From NCBI GenBank assembly GCA_019594055.1, contig JAFDTY010000002.1, positions 1-45,393 of the forward strand: 45,393 nucleotides of DNA, written 5' to 3'. The notes under the pieces were generated by a model. It saw only the letters and a program-made list of their open reading frames with translations, was not told where the DNA came from and did not search any database. Numbering within the stretch: the first letter of the stretch is position 1; the number at the start of each line of letters is the position of its first letter. The stretch is from Candidatus Haladaptatiplasma halalkaliphilum. GTDB lineage: Archaea > Thermoplasmatota > Thermoplasmata > Halarchaeoplasmatales > Halarchaeoplasmataceae. The position numbers were made by a program, and so were the translations under genes. Shown in pieces: positions 5,016-42,996 of this stretch.

Positions 5016-6284
5016 TTAACTCTCGAGATACCTCTTAACCATCTTTATGGCGCAGACGTCTCCGCACATGGAGCAGGTGTCCTGATCCCCTATGGGCCTT
5101 TCACTGCGGTACTTTCGCGCCTTTTCCGGGTCCACCACACCCTTGAACATCCTCTCCCAGTCCAGGTCCTTACGTGCACTGGAAACCTCCCTGTCTATAC
5201 CCGTATCGACACCTCGGGCTATGTCCGCGGCATGGGCGGCTATCCTGGATGCGATGGTGCCTTCCCTGACGTCATCCACATCGGGCAGGCCGAGGTGCTC
5301 CGACGGGGTCACGTAACATAGAAAATCGGCACCCTCGTAGGCAGCCAGGGCACCGCCGATGGCACCCACGATATGGTCGTACCCCGGTGCGAAATCGGTG
5401 ACCAGGGGACCCAGGACGTAAAAGGGGGCATCGTCGCACAATTTTTTCTGTATCTTCACGTTGGCGGATATCTGGTCCATGGGTACGTGACCGGGGCCCT
5501 CCACCATGGCCTGAACCTTGGCCTTGCGGGACCTTTTCACCAGCTCTCCCAGTGTGAGGAGTTCCTGTATCTGAGGCCTGTCGGTAGCATCGGCGATGGA
5601 ACCGGGTCGCAAGCCGTCACCGAGGCTCAGGGTAAGATCGTACTCTCTGGCTATCTCAAGTAAATAATCGAACTCCCGATAGAGCGGATTTTCCTCCTGG
5701 TTATGCAGTATCCAGGCGGTAAGGAATGAACCGCCCCGGCTCACCACATCGGTGAGTCTTCCCGATTCCTTCAGGGATCCCACCGCATTTCTGGTCACGC
5801 CGCAGTGTACCGTCACGAAATCAACGCCGTCCCTGGCATGCAGACGTATACTGTTGAACATATCGTCCGAGGTCATGTCAACGATGGCACCTTCCCGTGC
5901 CTTCTTCAAACCGCACTGGTAGATGGGGACGCTTCCCAGGGGTAGTGTGGTCTCGCCGATCATTGTACGTCTGATCTCATCCACATCTCCCCCGGTGCTC
6001 AGGTCCATCACCGTGTCCGCACCGTATTTTTCTGCGACCTTCAATTTCTCCAGTTCCAGACCTACATGGTGCATGTCTCCGGAGGTGCCTATGTTAACAT
6101 TCACTTTTACCCGGAGTCCCTTTCCTATGGCGGTGGGTCTCGGTCCGTGTATGGAATTGTAAGGGAGCACTGCAAAACCCTTTGCAATGAGACTGGCGAG
6201 TTTTTCCGCTTTCATGGATTCGGTTACGGCACACTGTTCCACCACATCGGGTACACCCCTTTCACATTCTTCCATGAGTGTCAT
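5016..6284 (-). CDS. thiC: Phosphomethylpyrimidine synthase ThiC
   Basis: The 422-aa product has characteristic blocks DTVMDLSTGG, FVTVHCGV, MVEGPGHVP, APFYVLGPLVTD, and the C-terminal CSMCGxxC iron-sulfur motif. Confidence 0.95.
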   Translation of the reverse strand: MTLMEECERGVPDVVEQCAVTESMKAEKLASLIAKGFAVLPYNSIHGPRPTAIGKGLRVKVNVNIGTSGDMHHVGLELEKLKVAEKYGADTVMDLSTGGDVDEIRRTMIGETTLPLGSVPIYQCGLKKAREGAIVDMTSDDMFNSIRLHARDGVDFVTVHCGVTRNAVGSLKESGRLTDVVSRGGSFLTAWILHNQEENPLYREFDYLLEIAREYDLTLSLGDGLRPGSIADATDRPQIQELLTLGELVKRSRKAKVQAMVEGPGHVPMDQISANVKIQKKLCDDAPFYVLGPLVTDFAPGYDHIVGAIGGALAAYEGADFLCYVTPSEHLGLPDVDDVREGTIASRIAAHAADIARGVDTGIDREVSSARKDLDWERMFKGVVDPEKARKYRSERPIGDQDTCSMCGDVCAIKMVKRYLES

Positions 6285-6405
6285 CGTGGTTCAATGAAGG
6301 GTCGAACATTATAACCTTTTGGATTGACAGCCGGTAAAAGAGAGCTATCTAATGTAAAAAACTAAATATGTTATGCTTTATCTTAAGCTGCCAAGGTGTT
6401 AATCT

Positions 6406-8646
6406 ATGGTAGAAGAAGAGATGACTTGCCCCGTATGCGATTCGAAGATACCCGTGGATTCGGATAAATGTACTTTCTGTGGTATCGAGACGGAACTGTT
6501 ACGCATGGTGGAAGAGAAAGGAGGAATCGTAGACGATGGGGTGAATGAGGGTCCTGTACCCGAGGAGACCTTGATCTTCGAATGCCCTATATGTGAAACA
6601 GATGTTGCCGAGGATGCAAAACGATGCCCTAAATGCGGGGCGATATTCGAGGAAGGAGTGGAAGATGAGGTGATAGAGGACGAGCTGGAGGCGGATTTCA
6701 ATGAAAGGCTAGCGGAAACAAGGCAGAGTTTATCCACGGTAAGAGCAATGGGAATAGGGCTAGATCACCTGAAAGCACTACTCAGGGATGCCACAACCGC
6801 GGGTTCTAACGGTGAATACAAACGAGGTATCCGGATCACGGATGAATGCATACGATCTGCACAGCATATAGAGGATATAAACGAGAGGGTGGTCTCAGCG
6901 AGGCATCTGATTATTGAGCTAAAGGACCTGGGAAAGGACCCCGATGTATACCTGGATTTTTTACGTGAGGCGGTAAAAAAATTGGACAGCGGACTCTACG
7001 ACCAAGCCACCACGGAGATCGAGAACATCAACATCATGATGGAGGAAGAGCTGGAAAGCCTGAAAACAAAAACCCGTGAGTTGGAGGCGGAATTCAAAGA
7101 TAAATTCGAAGCCGCCAAGAAGAAACTTCTTGTGATCAGGGACGGTGAGATAAACATAGAGGAACAGAGGGGATTATTGAGGATGGCCAGGGACGCCGAG
7201 AGTGAAGGTGATCATCAGAGGGCGATAGAGCACCTCGACGAACTTCTGCTTTCATGCGAAAGCGTATCCACCATATTGGACATCATCGAGAAATTTAAAG
7301 AAACCTTAAATATGCTGAGAGAAAGGGGACTGGAACACCGATCCTACGTTCAGAACATCAGAAAAGGTAAGGGGATGGCCGATGAGGGGCGCTACCAAGA
7401 GGCCGAGGAGGTCATGGCTAAAACCCTCGAAGAGGCGGAAAATGCCCTGACCTGTGAAAGAGTTCTGAGCGATACCGAGAGTAGAGAACTGTATAACGAC
7501 ATGCGTGAAATTGTCAACGACCTGATGGAAAGGGTGATGAAAAGTCACATTTCACATGAACGTATCGACAGGATGATAGACAGGGCGTCGGAACAAGAGG
7601 GCAAGGGGAATACAGACACTGCGGCCCGGATACTGGAAAAGGTAGTGGGTAAGGCTGAAAAACTGCTCTTGATACGTAATATGATAGACCAGGGGAAGGT
7701 AAGATTAAAGGAATTGAAGAAATACGGCAAGGTGGACAAATCATACCTTGATGCCCTGAAGGAAGGCAAGAAATTGGCGGACAAGGGTGATTACGACACG
7801 GCCGTCAAGTTGGTGACCGATACAATAGAAGAGATGGATAACAAGATAAGCAAGACCTCCGGTGGTGGGGTCGCCGAAATAAGCAGGAAAACTTCCATAA
7901 AGGACATAGAGGACATGGTGTCCGAATTGAAGGATTTATTGTCAACTGCAAAAAAGCACGGTATAAAGGTGGAAGGAGGTCGCGAGATAATCTCGGAGGC
8001 CCTTGAAAGCGTTGCAGACAAGGATTTTGATAATACCCTCGAACTGTTAAGAAAAGGTAAGACCAGGATAATCGATTACCTGAAAGATGTCATTGACGGC
8101 AAGGTGGTCTCCCTTGAGCTGGCCATGGATGGCATATCAAAAGATGATGTGAAAACGGTTGAAAGGTACCTGGAACAGGTAAAACATACCGTGGAAGCCC
8201 ACAAGATATTCGAGGCCCTCGAGTACCTCTCCAAGGCGAATTCCCTCGTTGAGGTTTCCGAGGAGCCCGTGGGTGAAGCAGAATCCAACGTTGCATACGC
8301 GGGAAAGCTCTTATTCGATGCCGAGATGCTTGGAATAGATGTTACCCAGGCGAACGAACTACTGGATAAGGCCAAACTCGAACTAGAAGTGGGGGATTGG
8401 GAAAGTGCCGATGAATTCGCAGGTGACGCACGTGAAAGGATATATCAGAATGTACCCGCCAGACTTCAATCACTGGTCAGGGAGGCTCAAGAGGACCTTA
8501 AGAAGGCCAAGATATTCGGTATCAACGTATCCGAGGAGATAGAAATACTGAAGAGCGCCACCACTGCAAAGGATCAAGGTGATATGGTGAAATGCCTAGC
8601 CTTCATGAAGCGTTACAAGGAAAGGATAGAATTGTTGAAGGTTTGA
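6406..8646 (+). CDS. Double zinc-ribbon protein with about 10 TPR/MIT-like helical repeats (paralog family A)
   Basis: The N-terminus has CPVCDSKIPVDSDKCTFCG and CPICETDVAEDAKRCPKCG. These are followed by recurring units x-G-[IV]-[DN]-[VI]-x(5)-L-L-x-x-A-x(6,7)-G-[DE]-[YW]-x-x-A. It is a paralog of 29125..33483 and 37787..38917. Confidence 0.7.
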   Translation: MVEEEMTCPVCDSKIPVDSDKCTFCGIETELLRMVEEKGGIVDDGVNEGPVPEETLIFECPICETDVAEDAKRCPKCGAIFEEGVEDEVIEDELEADFNERLAETRQSLSTVRAMGIGLDHLKALLRDATTAGSNGEYKRGIRITDECIRSAQHIEDINERVVSARHLIIELKDLGKDPDVYLDFLREAVKKLDSGLYDQATTEIENINIMMEEELESLKTKTRELEAEFKDKFEAAKKKLLVIRDGEINIEEQRGLLRMARDAESEGDHQRAIEHLDELLLSCESVSTILDIIEKFKETLNMLRERGLEHRSYVQNIRKGKGMADEGRYQEAEEVMAKTLEEAENALTCERVLSDTESRELYNDMREIVNDLMERVMKSHISHERIDRMIDRASEQEGKGNTDTAARILEKVVGKAEKLLLIRNMIDQGKVRLKELKKYGKVDKSYLDALKEGKKLADKGDYDTAVKLVTDTIEEMDNKISKTSGGGVAEISRKTSIKDIEDMVSELKDLLSTAKKHGIKVEGGREIISEALESVADKDFDNTLELLRKGKTRIIDYLKDVIDGKVVSLELAMDGISKDDVKTVERYLEQVKHTVEAHKIFEALEYLSKANSLVEVSEEPVGEAESNVAYAGKLLFDAEMLGIDVTQANELLDKAKLELEVGDWESADEFAGDARERIYQNVPARLQSLVREAQEDLKKAKIFGINVSEEIEILKSATTAKDQGDMVKCLAFMKRYKERIELLKV

Positions 8647-8713
8647 CCTCTCCGTTCTCCCCCGTTATGTCGTATCCGAAGGTTTTATCTCCTAAAAGAT
8701 AGTTATACAATAC

Positions 8714-9631
8714 ATGGAAGAAGAATTGTATTCACTTTCACATGATGAGATAGCGAAAAGGATATCATCCATGGAGATACGGGGTGCGGCATTCATAGCC
8801 AGGGCCGCAGCTATCGCACTTAAAAACGCCGCTGAATCCTTCCACGGGACGGACATGGGTGAGTTCCGGTCCCATATGTCCGGGGCCGCAGATGTGATAG
8901 GCTCCACCCGTCCGTCGGCTGTTTCACTACCCAACGCGATACGTTATGTTCTGGGTTCAGGAGAACACGATACCGTTGACGAAGCCAGAGACTACATGGT
9001 TGAAAGGAGCCGTCGGTTCGTTGAGAATTCGCACATGGCTTCCAAAAGGATAGCGGAGTACGGTGGTAAAAGGCTCAAGGACGGAGATGTGCTGCTCACC
9101 CACTGCAACAGCTCACTGGCCATAGGTGCCATGAAGTATGCATGGGGCCAGGGGAAGAAGATAAGCGTATTTGCCACGGAATCCCGGCCGAAAAAACAGG
9201 GTTACATAACGGTGCGCCAGCTTGCGGAGCACGGCATACCCGTGAACCTGATAGTCGATTCGGCGGTAAGGTATTTCATGAATCAGGTGGACCACGTTTA
9301 CATAGGGGCGGACAGTATAGCCTCCAACGGTGCGGTGATCAACAAGATCGGTACTTCCCAGGTCGCCCTGTGTGCCCATGAATCTCGCGTTCCCGTGACC
9401 GTATGCGCCGAGACATACAAATTCTCCAGGGAAACAACCTTCGGCGACCTGATAAGGATAGAGGAGCGGGACCCGTCGGAGATAGTCGAGCCTGCAGATT
9501 TTCCCGGTGTAAACATAAGAAATCCTGTCTTCGATGCCACCTCCGAAAGGTATATCGACGCCATAGTTACGGAGAAAGGTATTATATCCCCCTCTAGCGC
9601 TTACCATATAATAACGGAGATGGAAGAATGA
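8714..9631 (+). CDS. Ribose-1,5-bisphosphate isomerase (eIF-2B alpha/beta/delta-like, e2b2 family)
   Basis: The product shows block-by-block resemblance to the archaeal R15P isomerase family: MEIRGA, TRPSAVSLPNAIRYV, THCNS, ESRPKKQG, VDSAVRY, GADSIASNGAVINKIGT, AETYKF. Its stop overlaps the rbcL start (ATGA at 9628..9631). Confidence 0.85.
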   Translation: MEEELYSLSHDEIAKRISSMEIRGAAFIARAAAIALKNAAESFHGTDMGEFRSHMSGAADVIGSTRPSAVSLPNAIRYVLGSGEHDTVDEARDYMVERSRRFVENSHMASKRIAEYGGKRLKDGDVLLTHCNSSLAIGAMKYAWGQGKKISVFATESRPKKQGYITVRQLAEHGIPVNLIVDSAVRYFMNQVDHVYIGADSIASNGAVINKIGTSQVALCAHESRVPVTVCAETYKFSRETTFGDLIRIEERDPSEIVEPADFPGVNIRNPVFDATSERYIDAIVTEKGIISPSSAYHIITEMEE

Positions 9632-10863
9632 AAAACGAATATCTAGCCCTGGGCGAGGAATTGGATCCCGAAGGATACTTAATCTGCGATTACAGGGTAA
9701 AGAGCGATTTACCCATAGAAACCGCCGGCTCACGTATAGCCGAGGAGGAATCCACGGGTACGTGGACCAGACCCACGACACTTACGGAAGACATATACGA
9801 GAGATACGGTGCCAAGGTGGTCATGGCCCAAGGTAACATGGTGCGTGTGGGATATCCAGTGATCGATTTTTCAGGTGAGTTCGGAGGCGTTCCCCAGATA
9901 CTCAGCATAATAGCCGGTAACCTCTTCGGACTGGAGTCCCTACGGGGTGTAAGGCTCCAGGACATATGGATACCGAAGGTCATCACCGAAAGATACCCGG
10001 GCCCGAGGTACGGTATCTCGGGCCTTAGAAAAATACTGGATAGGCCGGAAAAGCCCCTGATAGGAACCATAGTAAAACCAAAGATAGGGTTACCGCCCAA
10101 GGAGTTTGCGGATTATGTGTACGAGGCCGGAAAGGGCGGGCTCACCAACTCAAAGGACGACGAGACCCTGGTGGACCAGGATTTCTGCCCCCTGGAGGCC
10201 CGGGTCAGTGCGGTGAGCGAGAAGCTGGACCTTCTGGAAGAAGAGGGACATCCGATGATACATGCCCACAACATTAGCACCTCGGCACATGAGATACTGG
10301 ATGCCGCGGATATCGCCCTTGAGAACGGTGCAAGGCAGTTGATGGTGGACGTCTTCACCGAGGGCTTCTCCGGGGTTCAGGTGCTTGCGGAAGATCCATC
10401 TGTGGGCGTACCACTACACGTGCACCGTGCCATGCACGGCGCATTCACCAGAGATCCCGAACACGGCATCTCCATGCCGGTGGCCTGCAAACTGGTAAGG
10501 ATGGTGGGTGGAGATTCCTTCCATATCGGAACCTACGGCACGGGAAAGATGCACGCAAACATATCGGAAGAACTGCACTCGGAGAAGGCTCTAACGGAGG
10601 AGATGCACGGTATACATCCAACGATACCCGTATCAAGCGGGGGTTTGCACCCTGGCCACATGCCCGAATTGATGGCTAAGAGCGGTAACGATGTACAGAT
10701 ACAGGCAGGGGGAGGTGTTTCGGGGCACCCTGACGGCGTCAGGGCGGGCGCTACCGCATTGATGCAGGCTGTGGATGCAGCTTTCGACGGAATACCCCTC
10801 AGGGAGTATGCAAAGAGTCATGACGAACTGAGAAAGGCACTAGAAACGTGGGGATACAGATGA
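9628..10863 (+). CDS. rbcL: Ribulose-1,5-bisphosphate carboxylase/oxygenase large subunit, form III
   Basis: The catalytic signature positions are all present: KPK(I)GL, the carbamylated-Lys block KDDE, HVHRAMHG, FHIGT..GKM, SSGGLHPG, and AGGGVSGHPDG. The gene is flanked by the two AMP-pathway genes. Confidence 0.85.
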   Translation: MKNEYLALGEELDPEGYLICDYRVKSDLPIETAGSRIAEEESTGTWTRPTTLTEDIYERYGAKVVMAQGNMVRVGYPVIDFSGEFGGVPQILSIIAGNLFGLESLRGVRLQDIWIPKVITERYPGPRYGISGLRKILDRPEKPLIGTIVKPKIGLPPKEFADYVYEAGKGGLTNSKDDETLVDQDFCPLEARVSAVSEKLDLLEEEGHPMIHAHNISTSAHEILDAADIALENGARQLMVDVFTEGFSGVQVLAEDPSVGVPLHVHRAMHGAFTRDPEHGISMPVACKLVRMVGGDSFHIGTYGTGKMHANISEELHSEKALTEEMHGIHPTIPVSSGGLHPGHMPELMAKSGNDVQIQAGGGVSGHPDGVRAGATALMQAVDAAFDGIPLREYAKSHDELRKALETWGYR

Positions 10864-12386
10864 TAGAGAGGTTGAGGGCCAGGACGATAGATATCGAGGC
10901 GGGTGACTGCAAGGTCATCCTCAACAAGAAAGATGCGGAAAAGATGGGCCTGCGGAGTCAGGGCCGTGTGAAGGTGGGCTCTTCCCATGGTCATACAGTT
11001 GCCATAGTCGAGTTGTCCGAAACCCTGGTCAAAGAGGGGGAGATAGGTGTTCTGCACAGGGTGGTCACCAATATCAAAGTCCGGGAGGGAGAGGAGCTTA
11101 CCATCGTACCATCGGGAAGGCCCAAATCCATAGATCATATACGTGAAAAACTGGAAGGCAAGGAACTATCGGAACATGCGATAAACGAGATAATCCGCGA
11201 CATAACCGATCGGAGGCTTTCGGACATAGAATTATCGGCTTATGTGTGCGGTGTATACGCACGGGGGATGAACCTCAGGGAGACCAAGGACCTTACCCTG
11301 GCCATGATCAAAACCGGGGAGACCATAGAATTCGATAAACACCCCGTATTCGACCATCACAGCATCGGGGGAGTTCCAGGTAACAAGATAACACTTCTGG
11401 TGGTACCCATAGTCGCCGCTGCCGGCCTGCTGATACCCAAGAGTAGTTCCAGGGCCATATCCAGCGCCGGAGGTACCGCGGACATATTCGAGGTACTCGC
11501 CGATGTTACCCTTTCGTTATCCCAGATCAAATCCATTACCGAAGAGATCGGAGGCGTTATCTCATGGGGCGGTGCGGTAAATCTTGCACCCAGCGACGAC
11601 CTGATAATCCGGGCGGAATATCCTCTGCGGATAGACCCCTACGCCCAGGTGCTGGCATCCGTACTGTCCAAGAAGAAGGCCTTCGGGGCGGAGTATCTGG
11701 TTATGGACATACCCGTGGGACCCAATACGAAGGTCGAGGACATGGAGCAGGGAAGAAAGTATGCCAGGGACTTCGTCACCCTGGGTGAGGAGATCGGCAT
11801 CAACGTACGCTGCGCCCTTAGCTACGGCGGCCAACCTGTGGGAGAAGGCGTAGGCCCTGCCATCGAGGCCCGGGAGGCTCTGGCGGCCCTGGAAGGAAAG
11901 GAGGTGCCCAACAGTTTGATAGAAAAATCCGTGGAGCTGGCGGGCATGATACTCGAACAGGGCGGGTTACCTGAGGGAAGAGGAAAGGAAAAGGCAAGAA
12001 AGATACTTTCCGGCGGGGCCGCACTGAACAAGATGAAAGAGATAATTCAGTACCAGGGAGGCGACCCCGAGGTTACGTCGGACGACGTACCCATAGGCAA
12101 ATATTCCCAGGATATATTGTGCAACAGGGACGGGTATGTGGGCGCCATAAACAACCGCTGTGTCATCGAGATCGTACGGGCCGCCGGAGGGCCCCACGAC
12201 AAGGGCGCCGGGTTCATACTGAAGAAGAAGAGGGGTGACAAGGTGGATAAGGACGAATTGCTCTACACCATCTACTCTGAAAACAAGAGCAATCTGAAGG
12301 AAGCGGTCAAACTAGCCAACCATCTGAAACCCTTCTTCATAGAAGGTATGATACTGGAAAAGCACCCATCCTATCGCATGGTCTGA
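10860..12386 (+). CDS. deoA: AMP phosphorylase (thymidine phosphorylase family)
   Basis: The N-terminal AMPpase-specific domain (IDIEAGDCKVILNKKDAEKMGL) is present. So are the blocks HSIGGVPGNK, VVPIVAAAGL, SSRAISSAGGTAD, WGGAVNLAPSDD and YGGQPVGEGVGPAIEAREAL. I chose the ATG at 10860 because it overlaps the rbcL stop (ATGA); the track start at 10848 is non-ATG. Confidence 0.85.
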   Translation: MIERLRARTIDIEAGDCKVILNKKDAEKMGLRSQGRVKVGSSHGHTVAIVELSETLVKEGEIGVLHRVVTNIKVREGEELTIVPSGRPKSIDHIREKLEGKELSEHAINEIIRDITDRRLSDIELSAYVCGVYARGMNLRETKDLTLAMIKTGETIEFDKHPVFDHHSIGGVPGNKITLLVVPIVAAAGLLIPKSSSRAISSAGGTADIFEVLADVTLSLSQIKSITEEIGGVISWGGAVNLAPSDDLIIRAEYPLRIDPYAQVLASVLSKKKAFGAEYLVMDIPVGPNTKVEDMEQGRKYARDFVTLGEEIGINVRCALSYGGQPVGEGVGPAIEAREALAALEGKEVPNSLIEKSVELAGMILEQGGLPEGRGKEKARKILSGGAALNKMKEIIQYQGGDPEVTSDDVPIGKYSQDILCNRDGYVGAINNRCVIEIVRAAGGPHDKGAGFILKKKRGDKVDKDELLYTIYSENKSNLKEAVKLANHLKPFFIEGMILEKHPSYRMV

Positions 12387-27850: not shown

Positions 27851-28147
27851 CTATAATAATTTATCCAAAGGTTTACTTTTTAACACCTTGCTGTGGGGTC
27901 TTACCTTCACCGAGCAACCTTCGGCCGTGATCAGTTTTTTCATGTCCTCCTTCCTTATCACGACACTCCCCTCATCCACCAACTGGTCGGAGTAAATATT
28001 CACCAGTATATCCTTTTCCTCCGAGCTCAGTACCACCAAAGAACCTTCTTTGATACCAAGCTTGGCAAGGTTGTTTTTGTTGATCCTTGCACGCCCACCC
28101 ATGGTAACCGGGCTTTCCTCAACATTGAGATTAAGACTTCCGGACAT
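27851..28147 (-). CDS. Stand-alone Cdc48/VAT N-terminal-like double-psi beta-barrel protein
   Basis: The 98-aa product is LNLNVEESPVTMGGRARINKNNLAKLGIKEGSLVVLSSEEKDILVNIYSDQLVDEGSVVIRKEDMKKLITAEGCSVKVRP. It follows the VAT-N/Cdc48-N pattern: L-R-V-x-E-x(n)-G-x-[AV]-R-[IL]-x(5)-L-x(3)-G-x-V-x-[IL] ... G-x-[IV]-R-[IM]-x(3)-[MR]-x(5)-G-x-x-V-x-V. Confidence 0.55.
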   Translation of the reverse strand: MSGSLNLNVEESPVTMGGRARINKNNLAKLGIKEGSLVVLSSEEKDILVNIYSDQLVDEGSVVIRKEDMKKLITAEGCSVKVRPHSKVLKSKPLDKLL

Positions 28148-28217: not shown

Positions 28218-28901
28218 TCACGCCCTGAATTTTCCTTCCAGAAACTTTTCTGCAGCCCTGGAACAAGTATCATGGGTCAATCTCCGGTCTAGTTCCGGTT
28301 TAACAAGCAGCCTTTTTAGGGCGTGAACAAGCCCTGTCAGGTTCCCGGTAAAATCCCAGTCCTCCAGATACGCCATACGTATGATACCACCATCCTCCGG
28401 TGGGAGTATGTTGGGGTGATAAATCCTGGATTTCCAGATCACCCTGGGTGCTTCGAAGGGATATCCCCGTCCCAGACGTATGTCCAACTGATGGGTGAAA
28501 GTCATGGCTAGCGAATTTCCCACCGTCACCGGGCCGGGTGTATCCTTGAACACCAAGGTAAGATACAGGATGTCCCCCTCCCGGACCGTGTCCATATCCA
28601 GATCCATGCCTTTAAGGGAGTCTATCTCGTTTTCGATCCTCTTTCTCCACATATCTTCGGGGAGGGTTCTCTCCGTGTCTGTGCGTATCAGGGTTAGTTC
28701 CTCGCCCCCCTCAACACCGGTGGCCGACCATATAACATCCTTTTGGACCTTCCTGGATGAAAGGTGTAGTTCATAGTTACCTTCCAATCCCCAATACTTC
28801 ACCAATCCCTCGATGGTGTTATCCACCTTTTTTCGAGGGTCAACCTCTATATCGACCCGTTCTCCGCCTTTCTCGTCGAATACCTTCAACCTTATGGACA
28901 T
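28218..28901 (-). CDS. Possible beta-grasp (ubiquitin-like) domain fused to a UBC/E2-like core that lacks the catalytic cysteine
   Basis: The C-terminal half reads GRGYPFEAPRVIWKSRIYHPNILPPEDGGIIRMAYLEDWDFTGNLTGLVHALKRLL. It fits the E2 signature YPF-x-PP-x-V-x-F-x(3)-I-YHPNI-x(n)-G-x-I-C-x(3)-L-x(3)-W, but has Arg where the Cys belongs. The N-terminal 75 aa (MSIRLKVFDEKGGERVDIEVD...GGEELTLIR) have a beta-beta-alpha-beta-beta alternation. The start is set at the ATG at 28901, 23 nt downstream of a TATA-like box; the track ORF extends to 28982. Confidence 0.6.
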   Translation of the reverse strand: MSIRLKVFDEKGGERVDIEVDPRKKVDNTIEGLVKYWGLEGNYELHLSSRKVQKDVIWSATGVEGGEELTLIRTDTERTLPEDMWRKRIENEIDSLKGMDLDMDTVREGDILYLTLVFKDTPGPVTVGNSLAMTFTHQLDIRLGRGYPFEAPRVIWKSRIYHPNILPPEDGGIIRMAYLEDWDFTGNLTGLVHALKRLLVKPELDRRLTHDTCSRAAEKFLEGKFRA

Positions 28902-28923
28902 GGAGAGAACACAAGACAGGGTA

Positions 28924-28934
28924 GATATAGCTTT
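28924..28934 (-). promoter_or_regulatory. TATA-like box for the E2-like gene in the divergent intergenic region
   Basis: AAAGCTATATC on the minus strand lies about 23 nt upstream of the ATG at 28901. Confidence 0.35.
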
Positions 28935-29124
28935 TTTTCCCTTTCTCGGCGCATGTTCTTCCCGAAAACTATATATCGTCAATTATCTTAGAGTCTGTTC
29001 CATATATATGCTCCGGGGCATTACACAGATTTAGGATTACCATATTCATGAATGCCATGGGTAGTAAAACTTATTATTTCCCGGAAGCATACCCGGTTAG
29101 AAAGAACAACGGAGATGTAAAAGA

Positions 29125-32100
29125 TTGTCAGGGAAGTTCCTCAAGGCTAGGCAACTGGCCAAGGAGATGGAAGAAAAAGCAAAGAAAACGGCCGAAGAGA
29201 AGAAAAAAGCAACTGATAGTTTGCAAAAGGCCGAAGATTTGCTGGATTTTTCCCTGGAACTGGGGGTTGACGTGGGTGAGGCCAAGGACCTCATAGACAA
29301 CGCTTCCAAGAAGATCGTTGACATGCGCTGGGAAGAGGGTGTGGAGGATCTGAACAAGGCTATGGAAGTACTGAGTCAAGCGAACTTCAGTGTACTCGAT
29401 GATTTTTTAGACGGTACAAAGGAAATACACGAACTCATGGGGGATACGGAGAGGTGTGATGGCTCTCGGAAAAGTATGGAAAGTGCCATTGAACTTGCCG
29501 GAGAAGGTAAATTCAAAGAGGCCTTGGAATTAGCCAAAGAGGCCATGGAACTAGCCAAGCTAGAGATCCACGAGAAGCTGACGGACGAATTACATTCGGT
29601 TGAAACCCATATGCTCACCCTCGAGGGTATGAATAAGGATACCACCGAACTCAGGGATATACTCGACCAGGCCAGGGCTTTGGCGGAAGAAAATAATTTC
29701 GGTGAGGCATCCACACTAATATCCGGCGTGAATGAAAAGCTCCACGGAGATCTACAGGAATCCCTCAACGAGAGCATATCACGACTTGAGATCCTGGTGA
29801 CAAAAATCCGTAACGATGGTGAGGATACAACCGATGTTGAGGCCTCCATAAGCAAGGCCAAGTCACGTGCTAAAAACCTGGATATCGACGGTGCCATGGA
29901 GATGATAAAGGAGGCCCAGGGTATCATAAACGAGTCTCTGGAGAATGTGGTGTTGGTAAGATTCCAGGAACTCAGGTCGGGCATGGATGATGCCATGGCG
30001 ATAGAGGCCGACATGGGACCGGTGAACATACTTTTGAAACAGGCCGAATCCATGAGGGACGAAAGGCTTTTCAGCGAAGCCTACAATATAATTGAAGATG
30101 CCTTCGAAAAGCTCGGGGAGGCAAAATTCCACCGGGTTTTAAGGACCATAGCCGAGTCCAGGGAGAATTTTATCAAGGCAAAGAATATTGGTATCGATAT
30201 ATCCGAACCCATGGAATTGCTCAACAAGGCAAGAGATGCTCTGAAGGAAGGGAATCACAAGGGCGCCCTGGATTGGGCCATGGCAGGAAGAAGCAAGGTC
30301 AAGGAACTGGTCAAGGAATACGATGAGATCGAGGCCAGGATAGAACGATCCAAAAAGATGATCGCCGACTTGAAGGAGACAAACATAGACCTGGAGGTTG
30401 CCGGAGAGATCATATCCGAGGCACAAGGTTACTTTTTGGATAAAGATTACCAGACCGCCGTGGAAAAACTGGATGAGTTCCAAGAACACGCTGATAAGGT
30501 AGCCTACGGCAAAGTGATGGAACTAATCGAGGAATTCGAGATGAATATGATGACTGCCGATGAATTGGGTCTGGATGTGGCTGAGCACTCGGAAATGCTT
30601 GAAAAATCCATCGCCCAGATCAAATCGGGTATATATTTGGAGGCCGGAAAGATAGCCCAGGAGAACATCGGCGAATTGAGTGAAGCTATATCCAGGGAAA
30701 TGAAAGTCCGGTACGAGAACATCAGAGTACTGGTGGAGAAGATCAGAAAGGACCTGGGTGAAGACGAGGACCTATCCGAATTGAACCGGGTAACGGAGGA
30801 CATGGAAAAAGTGAGAGATGTCATGGAGAAAGGCTTTCACAGGGAAGCCATCGGCATAATTCAAGGCATTTCCGAGAAACTGGAGCGCTGGCAGGTGGGT
30901 GAAGCGGACGGAGCCCTTGCAGATGCCAGGGAACTGGTGGAACTCGTGGAAAGACTCGGGATAGAGAACATAGACCTGAAAGATTACATGAACAATATCG
31001 AAAAGGCCGAAAAGGCCCTTGAGAATGAAGATTACACCACAGCCATACAAACCTCGCACTCTATCGTGGATGAATTGAACAACAGGATGCGAAAGACCTC
31101 GGAAGAACAGTTCGCACATGCAAAGATGGAGGTGGTGAAGGCAAAGAAGGCTGGGGTTGACATAGAGGAATCGAGAAAGAGACTGATAGACTGCAAGAAG
31201 CAGATAAGGGATGAAAACTATGCGGAGTCCATCAAACTCTCCATGAAGATCCAGGAGGAGGCTCTTACCCTCAGGGAAAAAAGGAGAAGCAGCTACGAGA
31301 TAATCACCAGAATATCCGAGGAACTGACAAGGTTGAGACGGGAGGAGGGATTGAAGGACGTAGGTGCCGCCAAACAGATACTGTTAAAATCGAAGGAAAG
31401 TTTCCAGAACAGGGATTACACCCAGGCCGAGAAACTTGCCGAGCAGGCGATGCTCAAGATAGAAGAGGTTCACGGCAGGTATAACTACGAGAACAAGGAG
31501 AAAAATCTCAAGGAACTGATCGCCGAAGCCGAGGCCATCGGTATGGATGCTTCCCAGGAGGAGGATGCACTAGAGCTGTGCATCAGAAATTCGAATAGGG
31601 GTGAATATGAAATTGCCGTGGAGAAATTGAGCGAAACAATAGAATCACTTGTAAGCAAGATGGAAGGATATGTTAAGCCCGAGATAGAAAGGACAAAGGA
31701 CATAATCGACTCTGCCAAGGATATAAAGATAGACCTCTCTGGACCGGAAACGAAACTAAATGAAAGTATGGAGTTATTGAAGAAGAAGGATTTCAAGAAT
31801 TCCGTAGAGAAGATAGAGGCGTGTCGAAGGGAGATCGAGGATATACGTGACAAAAGCAGAAAGGCGGCCAGCCAGGTTAAACAGGTCAAGGAACGGATGA
31901 CGGAGGCAAAAGACCTTTATGCCGATGTAACCGAAGCGGAGATAATATTGGGCAGGGCCATGGATGCACTCAAAAAGGACGATTATGATCGGACGATAAC
32001 AGAGGCATTGAATGCGGAGAAGAGCATATCCCGTGCGGAAAAAATAAGGGTTGAACGATTGCTGGCGGCCTTCGAATCCAAAACAAGTGATATACGAAGG

Positions 32101-33483
32101 CAAGGGATCAATACCGCTCTGGCCGATAACCTTTTGCGACGTGCCGAGAAGGCCATGGAGAAGGGTAGTTATAAAGAGGCGATCAACCTTGCCATGCAGA
32201 GCGAGGGAGAGCTGGAAAGGATAGAGCTTCAACAGGATATCTCCAAAAGATGCATATCAACCACCAGTGACAAGGTGAATGCTGCCAAGGAGGTCGGCAT
32301 AAAGGTGGAAGATGCGGACAAATTGCTGAAACAGGCGATCCAGGCCTATCAGGCCGGCTTCTATGTAAAGGCCTTCGACAATGCGGTGAAGAGCGGGGAC
32401 GTACTCAACAAGACAGTCAAGGCCCACGATAGCACCAAGGAACTCATGGGATTGCTTGACAAAGCGGTCAAGAGCTGCGAATACCTCGGATGGGATGTTC
32501 AAGATGCGAAGAAGTATATGACGGAAGGGGAGCAGGCATTCCAGCGCGGTCTTTACGTGAAAGCACTTGTGAGCACCAGGAAGGCAGAAAAGTCACTGGT
32601 CTCCTTGGAAAAAGACATACCTGACAAACTGAAGGAAACCGAGAACATAATAAAGAGGATGAAGCAATTGAAACATGATGCCGGCGGATCCGAAGAATTG
32701 CTCAGGCAGGCCAAACTATCCCAGGGCATAGGTGACGTACTAGAAACCTTCATGTTAATAGCGGATGCCATGAAGAAAGCCGGTGTAGATGTGCATAACG
32801 AGTACAACAGTTCCATCACCGAGGCCGTATCCCTGCTGGCAAGCGCGCACAAATTCGGTGCCGATATAGGGGAGGCGGAAAGACTTGTGGAGGAAGCGAG
32901 AACCCTGGAGTTCGAAGACATCGGCAAGGCAAGGGATATGGCCATGGAAGCGCTTAAAGCCGTTGAAAACACCCTTGACCCCTACAGCCCCAAACTGGAG
33001 ATGGAGTTCAAGGGTCGGATAGATCCGGAAGGATGGAGTAAGGTGACCTTCGTGATGACCAATACCGGTAAGGGTGTAGGCAAATCACCATCACTGGAGT
33101 TCCAGGGATGTGAACATAAGGACATGGTAATGCCTTCCATGTTGAAGGCCGGGGAAACCAAGGAGATCGAAGTGGAACTCAAGGCAATCGACGAGAAGGT
33201 AACCGTAAAGGGAAGCGTAAAGAGGGTATTCGATGACAAAAGCATCGAAGATGTTCTGGAAATAGAGCCCAAGGCCGGTTCCTACCAAGTCCAAAAATCT
33301 ACGGGTGAGGAGAAATGCGACCTCTGCAAGGGGAACATAAAGAAGGGACTGGATATGATAGTCTGTAGTTGTGGCGAAACCTACCACAAAACATGCGGTG
33401 AAAGGGGAAACGAGTGCAAGAAATGCGGCACCGGTTTCGCACCAAAGAAGGTCACATCCAAGAGGGTTTCCCTCAAATTGTGA
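29125..33483 (+). CDS. Giant (1452 aa) helical-repeat protein with C-terminal beta-sandwich and C4HC3 zinc finger (paralog family A)
   Basis: About 20 units of the same motif as in 6406..8646 are present, for example NIGIDISEPMELLNKARDALKEGNHKGALDWA and RQGINTALADNLLRRAEKAMEKGSYKEAINLA. These are followed by a beta-rich segment (KVTFVMTNTGKGVGKSPSLEF...ETKEIEVELKA) and then CDLC-x12-CSC-x4-H-x2-C-x6-C-x2-C. The start is a TTG at 29125 with GGAG 11 nt upstream; an alternative ATG lies at 29167. Confidence 0.75.
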   Translation: MSGKFLKARQLAKEMEEKAKKTAEEKKKATDSLQKAEDLLDFSLELGVDVGEAKDLIDNASKKIVDMRWEEGVEDLNKAMEVLSQANFSVLDDFLDGTKEIHELMGDTERCDGSRKSMESAIELAGEGKFKEALELAKEAMELAKLEIHEKLTDELHSVETHMLTLEGMNKDTTELRDILDQARALAEENNFGEASTLISGVNEKLHGDLQESLNESISRLEILVTKIRNDGEDTTDVEASISKAKSRAKNLDIDGAMEMIKEAQGIINESLENVVLVRFQELRSGMDDAMAIEADMGPVNILLKQAESMRDERLFSEAYNIIEDAFEKLGEAKFHRVLRTIAESRENFIKAKNIGIDISEPMELLNKARDALKEGNHKGALDWAMAGRSKVKELVKEYDEIEARIERSKKMIADLKETNIDLEVAGEIISEAQGYFLDKDYQTAVEKLDEFQEHADKVAYGKVMELIEEFEMNMMTADELGLDVAEHSEMLEKSIAQIKSGIYLEAGKIAQENIGELSEAISREMKVRYENIRVLVEKIRKDLGEDEDLSELNRVTEDMEKVRDVMEKGFHREAIGIIQGISEKLERWQVGEADGALADARELVELVERLGIENIDLKDYMNNIEKAEKALENEDYTTAIQTSHSIVDELNNRMRKTSEEQFAHAKMEVVKAKKAGVDIEESRKRLIDCKKQIRDENYAESIKLSMKIQEEALTLREKRRSSYEIITRISEELTRLRREEGLKDVGAAKQILLKSKESFQNRDYTQAEKLAEQAMLKIEEVHGRYNYENKEKNLKELIAEAEAIGMDASQEEDALELCIRNSNRGEYEIAVEKLSETIESLVSKMEGYVKPEIERTKDIIDSAKDIKIDLSGPETKLNESMELLKKKDFKNSVEKIEACRREIEDIRDKSRKAASQVKQVKERMTEAKDLYADVTEAEIILGRAMDALKKDDYDRTITEALNAEKSISRAEKIRVERLLAAFESKTSDIRRQGINTALADNLLRRAEKAMEKGSYKEAINLAMQSEGELERIELQQDISKRCISTTSDKVNAAKEVGIKVEDADKLLKQAIQAYQAGFYVKAFDNAVKSGDVLNKTVKAHDSTKELMGLLDKAVKSCEYLGWDVQDAKKYMTEGEQAFQRGLYVKALVSTRKAEKSLVSLEKDIPDKLKETENIIKRMKQLKHDAGGSEELLRQAKLSQGIGDVLETFMLIADAMKKAGVDVHNEYNSSITEAVSLLASAHKFGADIGEAERLVEEARTLEFEDIGKARDMAMEALKAVENTLDPYSPKLEMEFKGRIDPEGWSKVTFVMTNTGKGVGKSPSLEFQGCEHKDMVMPSMLKAGETKEIEVELKAIDEKVTVKGSVKRVFDDKSIEDVLEIEPKAGSYQVQKSTGEEKCDLCKGNIKKGLDMIVCSCGETYHKTCGERGNECKKCGTGFAPKKVTSKRVSLKL

Positions 33484-33487
33484 TCTC

Positions 33488-34018
33488 ATGGACCTTCTTA
33501 TACACGCATGTTGCGCGCCCTGTTCCACCTATTGTGTGAAAATTTATACGGATAGTTACAGGGTTGCGCTCTTTTGGTTCAATCCGAATATACATCCGTA
33601 CACCGAGTACAAAAAAAGATTGGATTCCATGCTATCCTACCATGTGGCGGAGCTCGTGTTAAAGGACGAGTATCTTCTGGAAGAGTTCTTTGAGAGGACG
33701 GCGAAGGTTGATAACCGATGCTCGGCCTGTTACCGATGGAGGCTGATGGAGACCGCGAAGAGCGCCTCCGAGAACGGTTTCGACGCCTTCACCACCACCC
33801 TTTCCATCTCCCCTTATCAAGACCATGAACTCATCAGAAGGGAAGGTGTAGCTGCCGGCAATATCCACGATGTGGAATTCGTCTATAACGATCTAAGAAA
33901 TGGTTTCAGGGAAAGTCGCAACACGGCCCGAGAGATCGGACTTTACATGCAAAAATACTGTGGGTGCATCTTCAGCGAGGCCGAGAGATACCTTAAGGAT
34001 CAGTGCCCTTCTCGGTAG
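33488..34018 (+). CDS. queH: QueH-like epoxyqueuosine reductase (DUF208)
   Basis: The N-terminus is MDLLIHACCAPCS. The blocks FWFNPNIHPYTEY, CSACYRWRL, FTTTLSISPYQ and KYCGCIFSE are characteristic of DUF208/QueH. The start is set at the ATG at 33488, 5 nt after the stop of the upstream gene. Confidence 0.75.
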   Translation: MDLLIHACCAPCSTYCVKIYTDSYRVALFWFNPNIHPYTEYKKRLDSMLSYHVAELVLKDEYLLEEFFERTAKVDNRCSACYRWRLMETAKSASENGFDAFTTTLSISPYQDHELIRREGVAAGNIHDVEFVYNDLRNGFRESRNTAREIGLYMQKYCGCIFSEAERYLKDQCPSR

Positions 34019-40305: not shown

Positions 40306-41841
40306 CTATAGATATCCGTCCGGCTTGCTTATATCATCGTCTTCCATGGTGTAATCCATGGTCTTACCGCCGTCGCACTCGGTTTTGCAGGCACGGACGA
40401 AGTCCGAATGTGTCACCTCTTCTTTGCCAAGGGCCAGGGCCTGCCGGGCGGCATTGAGTACCGCGTTCCTGATCTGCCCACCGGTGAACTCGTATTCCCT
40501 GGCAAGCTCCTTCAGGTCAACATCGTCTGCCAGCGGCAATTCTTCCGGTATGTGGACCTTCCATATATTCAGCCTGGCATCCGCCTCGGGCCTTGGGAAC
40601 ATGACCTTCATGGCCATCCTCCGTTCCAGGGCCCTGTCCATACCCCGGGCAAGGTTAGAGGTGAGTATCAGCACACCGCTATGTTCCTCCATCTTCTGAA
40701 GGAATATGTTCACTATCCTGTTTTCCGTTGAATCCACACCGGAGCCCCTGTTACCCCTGTGGGCAAGTATACCGTCTGCCTCGTCCACCAGTAGTATCAC
40801 ATCTTCCCTTTCAACGATGTCAAAAAGAGATTCAACGTTCTTTTCCGTTTCACCGTAATAACAGTTGATCAAATGATCGAACTCAACTATGTAAACTTCC
40901 ATCCCAAGCTCTTTACCCAATGCCTTGGCGGTGAGGGTTTTGCCGGTACCGGAGGGTCCTGCGAACAGTATGTTTATACCGGTTCCGGCGATCTTTTTCA
41001 GATTCCATTCCCTGTACAACTTGTCCTTCTCTTTGATCTGTGTCATCAAAGCTTGTATATCTCTTCTGACACTGTCCTTGAGCACTACATCAGTCATGGA
41101 GAAAGACAGATCGGCCTTCCTCACCTGTTCCGAACCTCTATCATGTCTGCGTGGTCTTCCACGATGCTTCGTTTCCAGTTCATCTTCATCCATGATCACC
41201 GCTCCCAGCATCATGTCGACCAGATCCTCGTTTATCTCGAAGTAAGTGCCTTCCGTGCTCCGACCTGTGTGGCGCCTATGCATATTTCTAGGGATGAAAC
41301 GATCCACAGACCTCGAACTCCGGGATACGATCATGTTCTTTTGGGAGAGCGTGCTGTTCTCGCTCAGCAGTATCCTCCCCTCCTCGATGGGAGTTCCGTG
41401 GAGCACGTTGAGCAGGGCGATGAGCACCTCGCCTTTCACTGCAGGTTCCAGGGTATCTATGCCCACACCCCTGGCAGAATAGAGTAGCTTCACGATCGTT
41501 TCCTCCTGTTGTGAAATTTTGAAGTCTTCAAGTACACTTGTGGATGTGAAGGGTTCGCCCAAGGTTTTTTCGCTTTTCTTTCTCATATCTTCCAGAGATC
41601 CCATACGGTTCCGTATGTCTTCTGAAAAGCTATGGAAACCTTCCCGGGTGGGACGTGACATAAGATAATTTGCCTTTTCGATCAACTCCCTGCCTACGCT
41701 ACCAAGTGCCCGCAGATAATGGCCGTTGTCCTGGTAGAGTTCCAAGTCGTCCGTTGGACCTTCGGAACCCATAAGCTTCAACTTTTCCCTGTCGGCCTGC
41801 CTGCGGATGTTCTCATCATCGTATCCCGGGCTAATATGCAT
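40306..41841 (-). CDS. Single-module classical AAA+ ATPase with a 270-aa uncharacterised N-terminal region
   Basis: Walker A is ILFAGPSGTGKT and Walker B is ILLVDEAD. The second region of homology is TSNLARGMDRALERR. An AGGAGG box lies directly upstream (aaaacaggagggATG), 12 nt after the stop of the upstream gene. Confidence 0.85.
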   Translation of the reverse strand: MHISPGYDDENIRRQADREKLKLMGSEGPTDDLELYQDNGHYLRALGSVGRELIEKANYLMSRPTREGFHSFSEDIRNRMGSLEDMRKKSEKTLGEPFTSTSVLEDFKISQQEETIVKLLYSARGVGIDTLEPAVKGEVLIALLNVLHGTPIEEGRILLSENSTLSQKNMIVSRSSRSVDRFIPRNMHRRHTGRSTEGTYFEINEDLVDMMLGAVIMDEDELETKHRGRPRRHDRGSEQVRKADLSFSMTDVVLKDSVRRDIQALMTQIKEKDKLYREWNLKKIAGTGINILFAGPSGTGKTLTAKALGKELGMEVYIVEFDHLINCYYGETEKNVESLFDIVEREDVILLVDEADGILAHRGNRGSGVDSTENRIVNIFLQKMEEHSGVLILTSNLARGMDRALERRMAMKVMFPRPEADARLNIWKVHIPEELPLADDVDLKELAREYEFTGGQIRNAVLNAARQALALGKEEVTHSDFVRACKTECDGGKTMDYTMEDDDISKPDGYL

Positions 41842-41853
41842 CCCTCCTGTTTT

Positions 41854-42996
41854 TCATGTCTTGTACCCCCTGGAATCCAAGTCCCTCCATACCTCGTTCT
41901 GGGTGCTCTTCGGGTTCTCCATCCTGTAGATGGTGGGCCTCATGGGGTGGTTTCTCGGCGATGCAAAGCGATGATTGGCGCACAGTGTCTGGAGTGTCAG
42001 ACTCATGGTTGAGTTTGCGTTCATGGTAACCCGGGTTTCCCCCTGTGTCACCAGATTCTGTACCGCCGCTTTGGGGTCTATGACCTCGAAGAGGTATCCC
42101 TTAGGCACTTTTACTGTTACCTGTTGGTTTGTATTGTTCTCCAGCAGCAGATCGACCATGAGACCCGATTCGTTTCTTCCTCCCTTTGCATATCTTACGG
42201 TTATCATCTTTGAGCGTACCATGACCGGTAGGGAGTCCTCAGAGTCTTCTTCCACCAATCCCATGACCTCCGGTGAAATTTTCCGGATCTTTTCGGGAAG
42301 AGCGCCACCCCTGTAGCCCGCCCTCTCCAATGCGAAGGATCTGATCAATGTTCGACCGCCAACACCGTCTTGCCCGTCGGGTATGTACCTTATCTCCGGT
42401 AACGTTTCCCAAACTCCACGGTCAACAAGTTCCGTTTCATTGTTTTCTTCATCGTCGAAAACGAACAACCTTCCATGCTGCTCTTCCCCTTGTATCTCCA
42501 GTTCTCCCGTATCCTTGTTTACCAACCAGCTCTCCACGAAGACCTTGTTGTCCCGATACGTATGGATCATGAACTGGGAAGGTATGCAGATATGATCTCT
42601 GTGAAAACTCCTGTGTAGTGGAGATACGATCACAAATACTACGAAATATATCCGTTCGTCCATGTTTTCTACCAATCCTATCATGGAAGATTCCAACTCC
42701 CTGATACCAAAATTCTCCGTCTCCGCCAGCTCACCTACGGTGAACAGATTCACGCTGTCCTTTGAATGTGTTCTACGGTCCCTTACCAACTCGTCCGCGG
42801 AAGGTGGCGACCACCTATCCATGGGTAATAGACCGGCATCGGCATCCACCATTTCATGTACACCGTGATCCTCCATCAACGAGATCATATCCCCCTTTAA
42901 CATCAGTCTCTTTTGATCTTCCAGGGTCTCTCCGCTCACCAGCACGTAGACCCCGGGGCACACTTCGCCCAATCCTTTTTTTCTGTTATCCGGCAT
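41854..42996 (-). CDS. Hypothetical protein (380 aa), operon partner of the AAA+ ATPase
   Basis: The ORF is long and clean with an acidic central region. The beta-rich C-terminal part is LLLENNTNQQVTVKVPKGYLFEVIDPKAAVQNLVTQGETRVTMNANSTMSLTLQTLCANHRF. I could not assign a family with confidence. Confidence 0.7.
   Translation of the reverse strand: MPDNRKKGLGEVCPGVYVLVSGETLEDQKRLMLKGDMISLMEDHGVHEMVDADAGLLPMDRWSPPSADELVRDRRTHSKDSVNLFTVGELAETENFGIRELESSMIGLVENMDERIYFVVFVIVSPLHRSFHRDHICIPSQFMIHTYRDNKVFVESWLVNKDTGELEIQGEEQHGRLFVFDDEENNETELVDRGVWETLPEIRYIPDGQDGVGGRTLIRSFALERAGYRGGALPEKIRKISPEVMGLVEEDSEDSLPVMVRSKMITVRYAKGGRNESGLMVDLLLENNTNQQVTVKVPKGYLFEVIDPKAAVQNLVTQGETRVTMNANSTMSLTLQTLCANHRFASPRNHPMRPTIYRMENPKSTQNEVWRDLDSRGYKT

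Follow-up and report, generated by a model that had tools for sequence, protein, structure and literature searches.

A Prok-RING_1 finger ends a giant helical-repeat protein encoded beside an E2-like gene without an active-site cysteine in a Thermoplasmata archaeon

The first 45,393 nucleotides of contig JAFDTY010000002.1 from Candidatus Haladaptatiplasma halalkaliphilum, hereafter the window, contain a gene (29125..33483, + strand) for a giant protein of 1452 residues that ends in a zinc finger with eight metal ligands. Our analysis identifies this finger (33316..33426, + strand) as a RING-type binuclear zinc finger of the known Pfam family Prok-RING_1 and rejects its identification as a plant homeodomain (PHD) finger. 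The neighboring gene encodes a protein with a ubiquitin-conjugating enzyme (E2)-like domain, in which the active-site loop contains no cysteine. We lean, with modest confidence, toward an explanation in which the Prok-RING_1 finger of the giant scaffold docks this partner with the ubiquitin-conjugating (UBC) fold, the partner being non-catalytic in this genome and similar to the ubiquitin E2 variants (UEVs).

The giant gene has a TTG start and a stop codon at 33481–33483. Its product begins with MSGKFLKARQLAKEME, an N-terminus also kept in orthologue L002, and ends with ...EEKCDLCKGNIKKGLDMIVCSCGETYHKTCGERGNECKKCGTGFAPKKVTSKRVSLKL*. The finger reads C-DL-C-KGNIKKGLDMIV-C-S-C-GETY-H-KT-C-GERGNE-C-KK-C and is followed by GTGFAPKKVTSKRVSLKL. 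Its ligands are residues C1398, C1401, C1414, C1416, H1421, C1424, C1431 and C1434 (C1–C4, H5 and C6–C8 below), which gives the C4HC3 order with the spacing C-x2-C-x12-C-x-C-x4-H-x2-C-x6-C-x2-C. This motif and its coordinates had been reported in a first-pass annotation of the window and agree exactly with the translation of the open reading frame (ORF). Seven of the 14 cysteines in the 1452-residue protein fall inside the 37-residue finger stretch, a clustering with a chance probability of ~7e-10 for a single such stretch and ~1e-6 when corrected for all of them. The ligand order and spacing proposed from the single sequence are borne out across the family, as none of the eight ligands varies among 63 non-identical homologous fingers and all are kept in every whole-protein orthologue. 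The 12/4/6 spacing is found in 129 fingers from 113 of the 150 listed representatives, while the last loop, between C6 and C7, is 4–6 residues long among orthologues (six in the window protein and four in L007 and L008).

The family assignment was made against the Pfam gathering cut-offs, which are 29.1 bits for Prok-RING_1, 24 for PHD and 27 for the E2 family UQ_con. Prok-RING_1 (PF14446) scored 32.7 bits for a 72-residue segment and 30.1 bits for a 169-residue segment, whereas its score within the full-length giant protein, 26.3 bits, lies just under 29.1. Among 31 diverse homologues, 30 matched Prok-RING_1 (E < 0.01), 20 matched zf-RING_2 and one matched PHD. Moreover, when a profile of 63 finger sequences was compared with the sequences in the PDB, the leading matches were RNF24 (3e-7), Arkadia (2e-6) and RNF165 (5e-6), with which the profile aligns ligand by ligand. 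Matches to the Pygopus PHD finger (~1e-3) covered the first half only, and a match to DOA10 (E 5e-4) was partial.

Prok-RING_1 has been present in Pfam since 2011 and was reportedly defined in that year, as prokaryotic RING finger family 1, by Burroughs, Iyer and Aravind. Reporting a PHD/RING-variant finger that is rare in archaea thus amounts largely to re-discovery, because the finger domain had already been catalogued and automatically annotated; one giant representative (P0075) and its cluster-mate bear the NCBI name "RING finger protein [Thermoplasmata archaeon]". Nor is the finger rare, as had been supposed. Across 1.84 billion representatives, an exhaustive HMMER search recovered 206 representative clusters at E<=1e-3, and the family is widespread and common in Thermoplasmata. 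According to a review, prokaryotic RING fingers are typically C4HC3 (PMC11354881).

Two other finger types share the C4HC3 order, and the first-pass annotation had placed the finger with these PHD and RING-CH types by its spacing. Of that assignment the cross-brace RING type was retained, but PHD and RING-CH were not. In the RING-CH consensus, ~x7 precedes the His and the last loop is long, whereas the window finger has x4 and x6, and RINGv gave no match to the finger in the Pfam scan. PHD fingers have at least 12 residues between ligands 6 and 7 and a conserved Trp before ligand 7; the window finger has six (four in L007 and L008) and no Trp ahead of C7. For both types, the differences extend to the loop lengths, the missing Trp, sub-threshold scores and the lack of a structural match. 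A PHD-type reader finger that recognizes a modified or unmodified peptide tail could draw on the ligand order with its C-x-C...x4-H-x2-C spacing, on the half-length Pygopus match and on a sub-threshold match to PHD itself (PF00628) of 17.2 bits. However, that score is under the cut-off of 24, a single homologue of the 31 matches, the last loop of 4–6 residues falls well short of 12, and the top 50 PDB matches of the finger model in Foldseek include no PHD finger. The reader-like alternative raised by the first-pass annotation is accordingly not upheld, and we judge a PHD reader to be very unlikely.

Structure prediction agrees with the family assignment. The AlphaFold2 (AF2) model of the finger alone has a predicted local distance difference test (pLDDT) score of 90 and a β-β-α layout, and a model of the finger with the adjacent β-sandwich has a pLDDT of 93. 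In Foldseek comparisons against the PDB, the top matches of the finger were the RING-H2 domains of RNF165, Ark2C, ZNRF1, RNF12 and RNF13 (template modeling (TM) scores of 0.59–0.64; root mean square deviations (rmsds) of 1.6–2.2 Å over 52–59 columns), and all the top RING-H2 structures were solved in complex with E2s. The predicted layout and the superposition on RING-H2 domains therefore support, indirectly, a cross-brace fold, as the first-pass annotation had proposed. In such a fold, site I would be formed by C1398, C1401, H1421 and C1424 and site II by C1414, C1416, C1431 and C1434. The opposing arrangement, two independent and sequential zinc ribbons or knuckles (C1–C4, then H5–C8), has in its favor that C-x2-C-x12-C-x-C could in principle form a ribbon and that the last loop is very short. 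We nonetheless reject it as the least probable of the readings considered here: the confident AF2 model is a single β-β-α domain that superposes on cross-brace RING-H2 domains to ~2 Å over most of its length, and the profile alignment puts each ligand on a RING ligand.

The gene next to the giant (P0001; 28218..28901, − strand) encodes 227 residues, of which residues ~84–227 form the UBC core. The E2-like character ascribed to it earlier is confirmed by a UQ_con (PF00179) score of 35.8 bits against the cut-off of 27 and by a match to Ubc12 (E 1e-5), and its alignment to Ubc12 and UbcH5 spans the YPFxxP (here YPFEAP) and HPN motifs. A genome scan with the protein as a single query returned nothing; an alignment-based genome scan recovered E2-like relatives. 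The N-terminal ~75 residues (28677..28901, − strand) are a probable ubiquitin-like (Ubl), β-grasp domain, a label that we qualify because its matches are only sub-threshold (Rad60-SLD 21.2 bits against 23.8; RAD23 and TUG at E ~0.4). Its E-values against polyubiquitin overstate the match, as they accumulate over repeats worth 2.8 bits each, and the domain has no C-terminal Gly-Gly. The two genes had been described as back-to-back, and they are indeed adjacent, although the arrangement is head-to-head (divergent) and not tail-to-tail. Between them lies an intergenic region of 223 nucleotides (28902..29124, unstranded) with AT-rich TATA-like boxes (aactatatat, ccatatatatg and cttattattt), which is presumed to hold the promoters of both genes.

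The active-site loop of the E2-like protein (28356..28418, − strand; HPNILPPEDGGIIRMAYLEDW) contains no Cys. Met176 occupies the position of the active-site Cys found in L002, L006 and L007, and the sole Cys of the protein, C213, lies in the C-terminal helix. Following HPN, the window protein reads ...GGIIRMAYLEDW and its closest relative, L005, which also has Met at the active-site position, reads ...GGTIHMSYLERW, whereas L002, L006 and L007 read ...VSC... The finger differs along the same line. Around C7 the window protein has CKKC and L005 has CKEC, as opposed to the CPNC of L002, L006 and L007, which keep both the Cys and the Pro. Thus, in the subclade of the window and L005, the E2-like Cys has given way to Met (28356–28418) jointly with the change of the Pro after RING ligand C7 to Lys (33409–33417).

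The giant and E2-like genes are paired throughout the clade of the window, within a syntenic block that reads TrkH-TrkA-p98-E2like<>giant-QueH-eIF2alpha-L44e. Because the whole block is syntenic, this adjacency is not independent evidence that the two proteins work together. Support that is independent of it comes from more distant contexts and from the E2-contact positions described below. On two unclassified metagenome contigs, a 301-residue protein combines a winged helix-turn-helix (wHTH) with a finger homologous to that of the window (hhalign probability 94.6%, E 6.5e-8). One of these loci (L003, 7893–11995) encodes an E2 with Cys, a JAB protein, the wHTH and C4HC3 RING protein and a ThiF ubiquitin-activating enzyme (E1), and the other (L004, 136–3042) encodes the JAB, RING and ThiF E1 proteins. 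In addition, a gene start that matches the Ubl domain of the E2-like family (29.6 bits) lies directly 3' of a distant 1639-residue giant on the same strand (L018); its contig ends after 48 codons and the arrangement is unlike that of the window. In the window itself, the Pfam scan of the 37 larger ORFs detected no ThiF E1, JAB or free Ubl ending in Gly-Gly, and a tblastn comparison of all fetched Thermoplasmata loci was likewise negative for these three components. The L003 cluster adjoins an Lhr helicase gene.

In the explanation that we favor, the finger would be a RING-H2-derived, two-zinc cross-brace that forms the C-terminal module of a rod-like Thermoplasmata scaffold, which runs from ~20 helical repeats through an Ig-like sandwich and the RING finger to a basic tail peptide. 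The most likely role of the finger is to dock a partner protein with the UBC fold. In the window that partner would be the divergent Ubl-E2-like protein, and its docking would bring it onto the giant scaffold. The positions through which RING fingers contact E2s are consistent with such docking: an Ile, Val or Leu stands between C1 and C2 in 52 of 63 family fingers and a Pro follows C7 in 46 of 63. The window finger itself has Leu between C1 and C2, Lys in place of the C7-Pro, no helix Trp and Gly after C8. In sister lineages the pair might be able to transfer Ubl in an E3 (ubiquitin ligase)-like manner, because there the partner keeps its Cys and the RING its C7-Pro. In the window lineage, canonical catalysis with the neighbor appears unlikely because the partner is Cys-less and UEV-like in this genome, and the pair most likely functions without catalysis, as a UEV-like adaptor and a RING scaffold.

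Several observations weigh against this explanation. As a family, the fingers lack the helix Trp and the basic linchpin after C8, where 41 of 63 have Gly, and proteins with several fingers in tandem exist. The Foldseek E-values are weak (best 2.5e-3), as the finger domain is small, and C1 and PARP fingers appear further down the same list. Furthermore, the adjacency of the E2-like and giant genes in the window clade may be inherited and not selected, and no E2-like gene lies within 5–8 kb of eight distant giants with readable flanks. The small finger proteins P0040, P0092 and P0049 fell outside this neighborhood comparison, their contigs being too short. At the locus L020 (P0006; giant at 7001–11380), two proteins upstream of the giant were considered as diverged E2-like proteins and rejected (−1.6 and −1.8 bits); they are paralogous membrane proteins, and no E2-like gene lies upstream of this giant.

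A different account gives the finger a binding role with no connection to ubiquitin. In that case the finger, perhaps together with the Ig-like domain and the basic tail, would anchor the rod to a protein, a membrane or nucleic acid, and the E2-like neighbor would be unrelated. The absence of an E2 neighbor beside most distant giants whose flanks are readable fits this account, as does the existence of tandem proteins, with up to six fingers in 372 residues, that would suit a generic binding module. The conservation of the basic tail peptide on variable linkers, the location of one giant directly after FtsZ (L012) and the weaker fold matches to C1 and PARP fingers point the same way, and the abstract of Burroughs et al. 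of 2011 reportedly states that some prokaryotic RING fingers are not ubiquitin-related. We consider this the main rival and a possible account. Nevertheless, the E2-contact positions (the C1–C2 hydrophobic residue and the C7-Pro) are conserved family-wide, the best structure and profile matches are to RING-H2 domains that bind E2s, and the L018 and L003/L004 contexts tie this finger type to Ubl and E2 genes. At the opposite extreme, the giant might be an active E3 in the window organism, its RING recruiting the Ubl-charged E2-like neighbor and transferring Ubl to substrates held by the scaffold. The UBC fold of the neighbor with its HPN motif, the RING-H2-like fold of the finger, the presence of a homologous finger inside a full E1-E2-JAB operon and the in vitro activity of the Caldiarchaeum and Asgard E1/E2/RING cascades are in line with such an enzyme. 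Yet the neighbor has Met176 in a loop without Cys, the 45 kb contain no ThiF E1, JAB or free Ubl ending in Gly-Gly, and the C-terminus of the Ubl is not free because the domain is fused N-terminally; the finger, for its part, has Lys for the Pro after C7 and no linchpin Arg or Lys after C8. An active E3 in this organism thus appears improbable. The E3-like role suggested by the first-pass annotation is partly supported, in that the neighbor has a UBC fold, the finger is homologous to that of the E2-JAB-RING-E1 loci L003/L004 and the L018 giant is followed by a Ubl-domain gene start; it is undercut by the Met in place of Cys, by the missing C7-Pro and linchpin, by the lack of E1, JAB or free Ubl in the window and by the syntenic nature of the adjacency.

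The docking explanation can be placed beside better characterized systems. With Prok-RING_1 proteins in general, the finger shares the eight ligands in C4HC3 order, segment scores above the cut-off and the matches in 30 of 31 homologues; it departs in its slightly low full-length score. Eukaryotic RING-H2 domains (RNF24, Arkadia/RNF111, RNF165/Ark2C, ZNRF1 and RNF12), which provide the best profile and structure matches, have in common with it the β-β-α cross-brace, the hydrophobic residue between C1 and C2 and, in most family members, the C-P-x-C arrangement. Compared with RING-H2, however, the ligand-4 His is replaced by an invariant Cys located two residues upstream of C3, the C6–C7 segment is four residues shorter, Trp is missing and a Gly stands where RING-H2 domains have the linchpin Arg.

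The closest archaeal parallels are the RING E3s of Asgard archaea and srfp, the small RING finger protein of Caldiarchaeum subterraneum. The latter is an active RING whose third/fourth ligand is shifted, with an additional Cys put forward as a ligand (PMC5654768). Like srfp, the window finger is an archaeal RING with a shifted ligand encoded near an E2-like gene. However, srfp is a small stand-alone protein from an operon with ubiquitin, E1 and Rpn11 (PMC5654768), whereas the window finger ends a 1452-residue scaffold with no E1, ubiquitin or JAB gene nearby and with a Cys-less E2-like partner. Moreover, srfp has a helix Trp, W58, and a basic linchpin, R69, both needed for activity (PMC5654768), and the window finger has neither. 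The remaining components of the Caldiarchaeum/Asgard-type ubiquitin operon, namely E1, ubiquitin ending in Gly-Gly and JAB/Rpn11, were not found among the 37 larger ORFs of the window or at the syntenic loci.

For the partner, the nearest comparisons are UEVs, other inactive E2s and the bacterial polyUbl proteins fused to an inactive E2-like domain, described in operon type 6e by Iyer et al. 2006 (PMC1779556). These resemble the window neighbor in having a UBC fold without the catalytic Cys and, in the polyUbl-E2 fusions, a Ubl-like fusion. Unlike these proteins, the neighbor retains HPN, its sister orthologues still have the Cys and no JAB-E1 partner is nearby. The Pfam UEV model scored 13–14 bits on orthologues L002 and L005 and was unlisted for the window protein.

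To our knowledge, no Thermoplasmatota E2 has been characterized. How the ubiquitin system of eukaryotes came together is a question to which RING, E2 and Ubl components from archaea other than Asgard and TACK are relevant, and in one preprint the Thermoplasmatota E2s branch deep within the archaeal E2/UEV tree. It is unusual for a RING to be attached to a scaffold of 20 repeats and to have a Ubl-E2 fusion as its counterpart, and the Cys-bearing (L002, L006 and L007) and Cys-less (window and L005) relatives lend themselves naturally to comparing the states before and after an E2 becomes a UEV. The 20-repeat architecture, the tail motif, the Ubl-E2 pairing and the joint loss of Cys and Pro all lacked a description in a comparison that did not include the paper defining Prok-RING_1. 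A bolder proposal, which we offer as speculation and hold to be doubtful, is that the giant RING and the Ubl-E2-like protein, possibly with the neighboring protein p98, constitute a minimal ubiquitin-like module specific to Thermoplasmata and without a dedicated E1 or JAB. They would then represent a deeply branching E2/RING pair from archaea other than Asgard and TACK, in which the RING tethers a UBC adaptor to a rod of ~1,300 residues, perhaps linked to the envelope or to division, and in which some lineages passed from catalytic to non-catalytic as the Cys became Met. If so, such a module with Cys-to-Met lineages would provide a natural snapshot of the transition from an E2 to a UEV-type adaptor.

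Most of the giant protein consists of helical repeats. An iterated hidden Markov model (HMM) located 20–21 repeats with a period of ~63 residues (29269..32967, + strand; residues ~49–1281), in agreement with the earlier description of the host as a giant helical-repeat protein. The repeats share a conserved 37-residue core, D[VI]xxAxxLLxxAxxxxxxxxYxxAxxxA, and have no Pfam family and no sequence relative in the PDB, including in a PDB profile search with the whole giant. NCBIfam contains no model for the giant protein or the E2-like protein. Between repeats and finger lies a CARDB-like, Ig-like β-sandwich (32995..33297, + strand; residues ~1291–1391). The adjacent β-sandwich foreseen in the first-pass annotation is thereby substantiated, as the AF2 model (pLDDT 93) shows eight strands and 10 of the 31 homologues match CARDB. 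Among solved structures, the sandwich comes closest to the NBR1 FW domain and adaptin-ear/GAE domains (E 2.5e-4 or weaker). After the finger, a basic C-terminal tail (33427..33480, + strand) ends in SKRVSLKL. The extreme C-terminal motif [KR]2-3-[VLI]-x-[LFM]-x-[ILVF](G) occurs in 36 of 142 representatives (P0002–P0143) and is kept whatever the length of the linker (17–110 residues), which is often rich in Pro, Ala and Gln; judged by its sequence, the motif resembles a membrane anchor or a docking peptide on a tether.

The same C-terminal module is shared by many family members, which are proteins of 1450–1640 residues. Pattern scans of metagenomes and GTDB genomes located whole-protein orthologues in uncultured Thermoplasmata, including Candidatus Halarchaeoplasma halalkaliphilum, at 39–61% identity. 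A word-indexed protein database, from which the giant protein itself is absent, contained no relative of the C-terminal 203 residues, of the E2-like protein or of alignment A2. Elsewhere in the family, P0064, P0014, P0024 and P0011 carry 3–6 tandem copies of the finger (for example, six matched stretches in 372 residues), and in a giant subclade (P0006, P0008, P0013 and P0015) the His ligand is replaced by Glu, Gln or Asp.

Other genes surround the pair. The p98 gene (27851..28147, − strand) encodes a CDC48_N-like double-psi barrel protein of 98 residues (28 bits against a cut-off of 35.1); it lies between the E2-like gene and TrkA, 70 nt downstream of the former and on its strand, and is conserved in L002, L005, L006 and L007. 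The p98 protein is a possible, uncertain member of the giant/E2-like module. On the other side, QueH lies directly downstream of the giant gene, 4–14 nt past the stop codon, in both the window (33488–34018) and L020 (11394–11930), and in L012 (11776–13269) and L019 (10710–12236) ArcTGT occupies this place, overlapping the stop or following it by 6 nt. The gene 3' of the giant is therefore a 7-deazaguanine tRNA-modification gene in several lineages. Upstream of the 1589-residue giant RING gene of L012, an FtsZ gene on the same strand (5927–6988) ends 13 nt before the start, a hint that the giant of this lineage may be linked to the cytoskeleton or to cell division.

Farther away in the window, 40306–42996 (− strand) encodes a 511-residue protein with a single AAA domain (AAA and AAA_lid_3) and an unmatched N-terminal half, together with a neighbor of 380 residues that has no Pfam match; the Pfam scan detected neither MIT nor Vps4_C in these proteins. 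Two ORFs in overlapping frames (111–878 and 851–2053, − strand) consist of many helix-turn-helix repeats, whose summed scores are very high although most of the families have no single passing stretch. Finally, 8714–12386 holds an archaeal AMP-salvage cluster with genes for ribose-1,5-bisphosphate isomerase (IF-2B family), type III RuBisCO and AMP phosphorylase.

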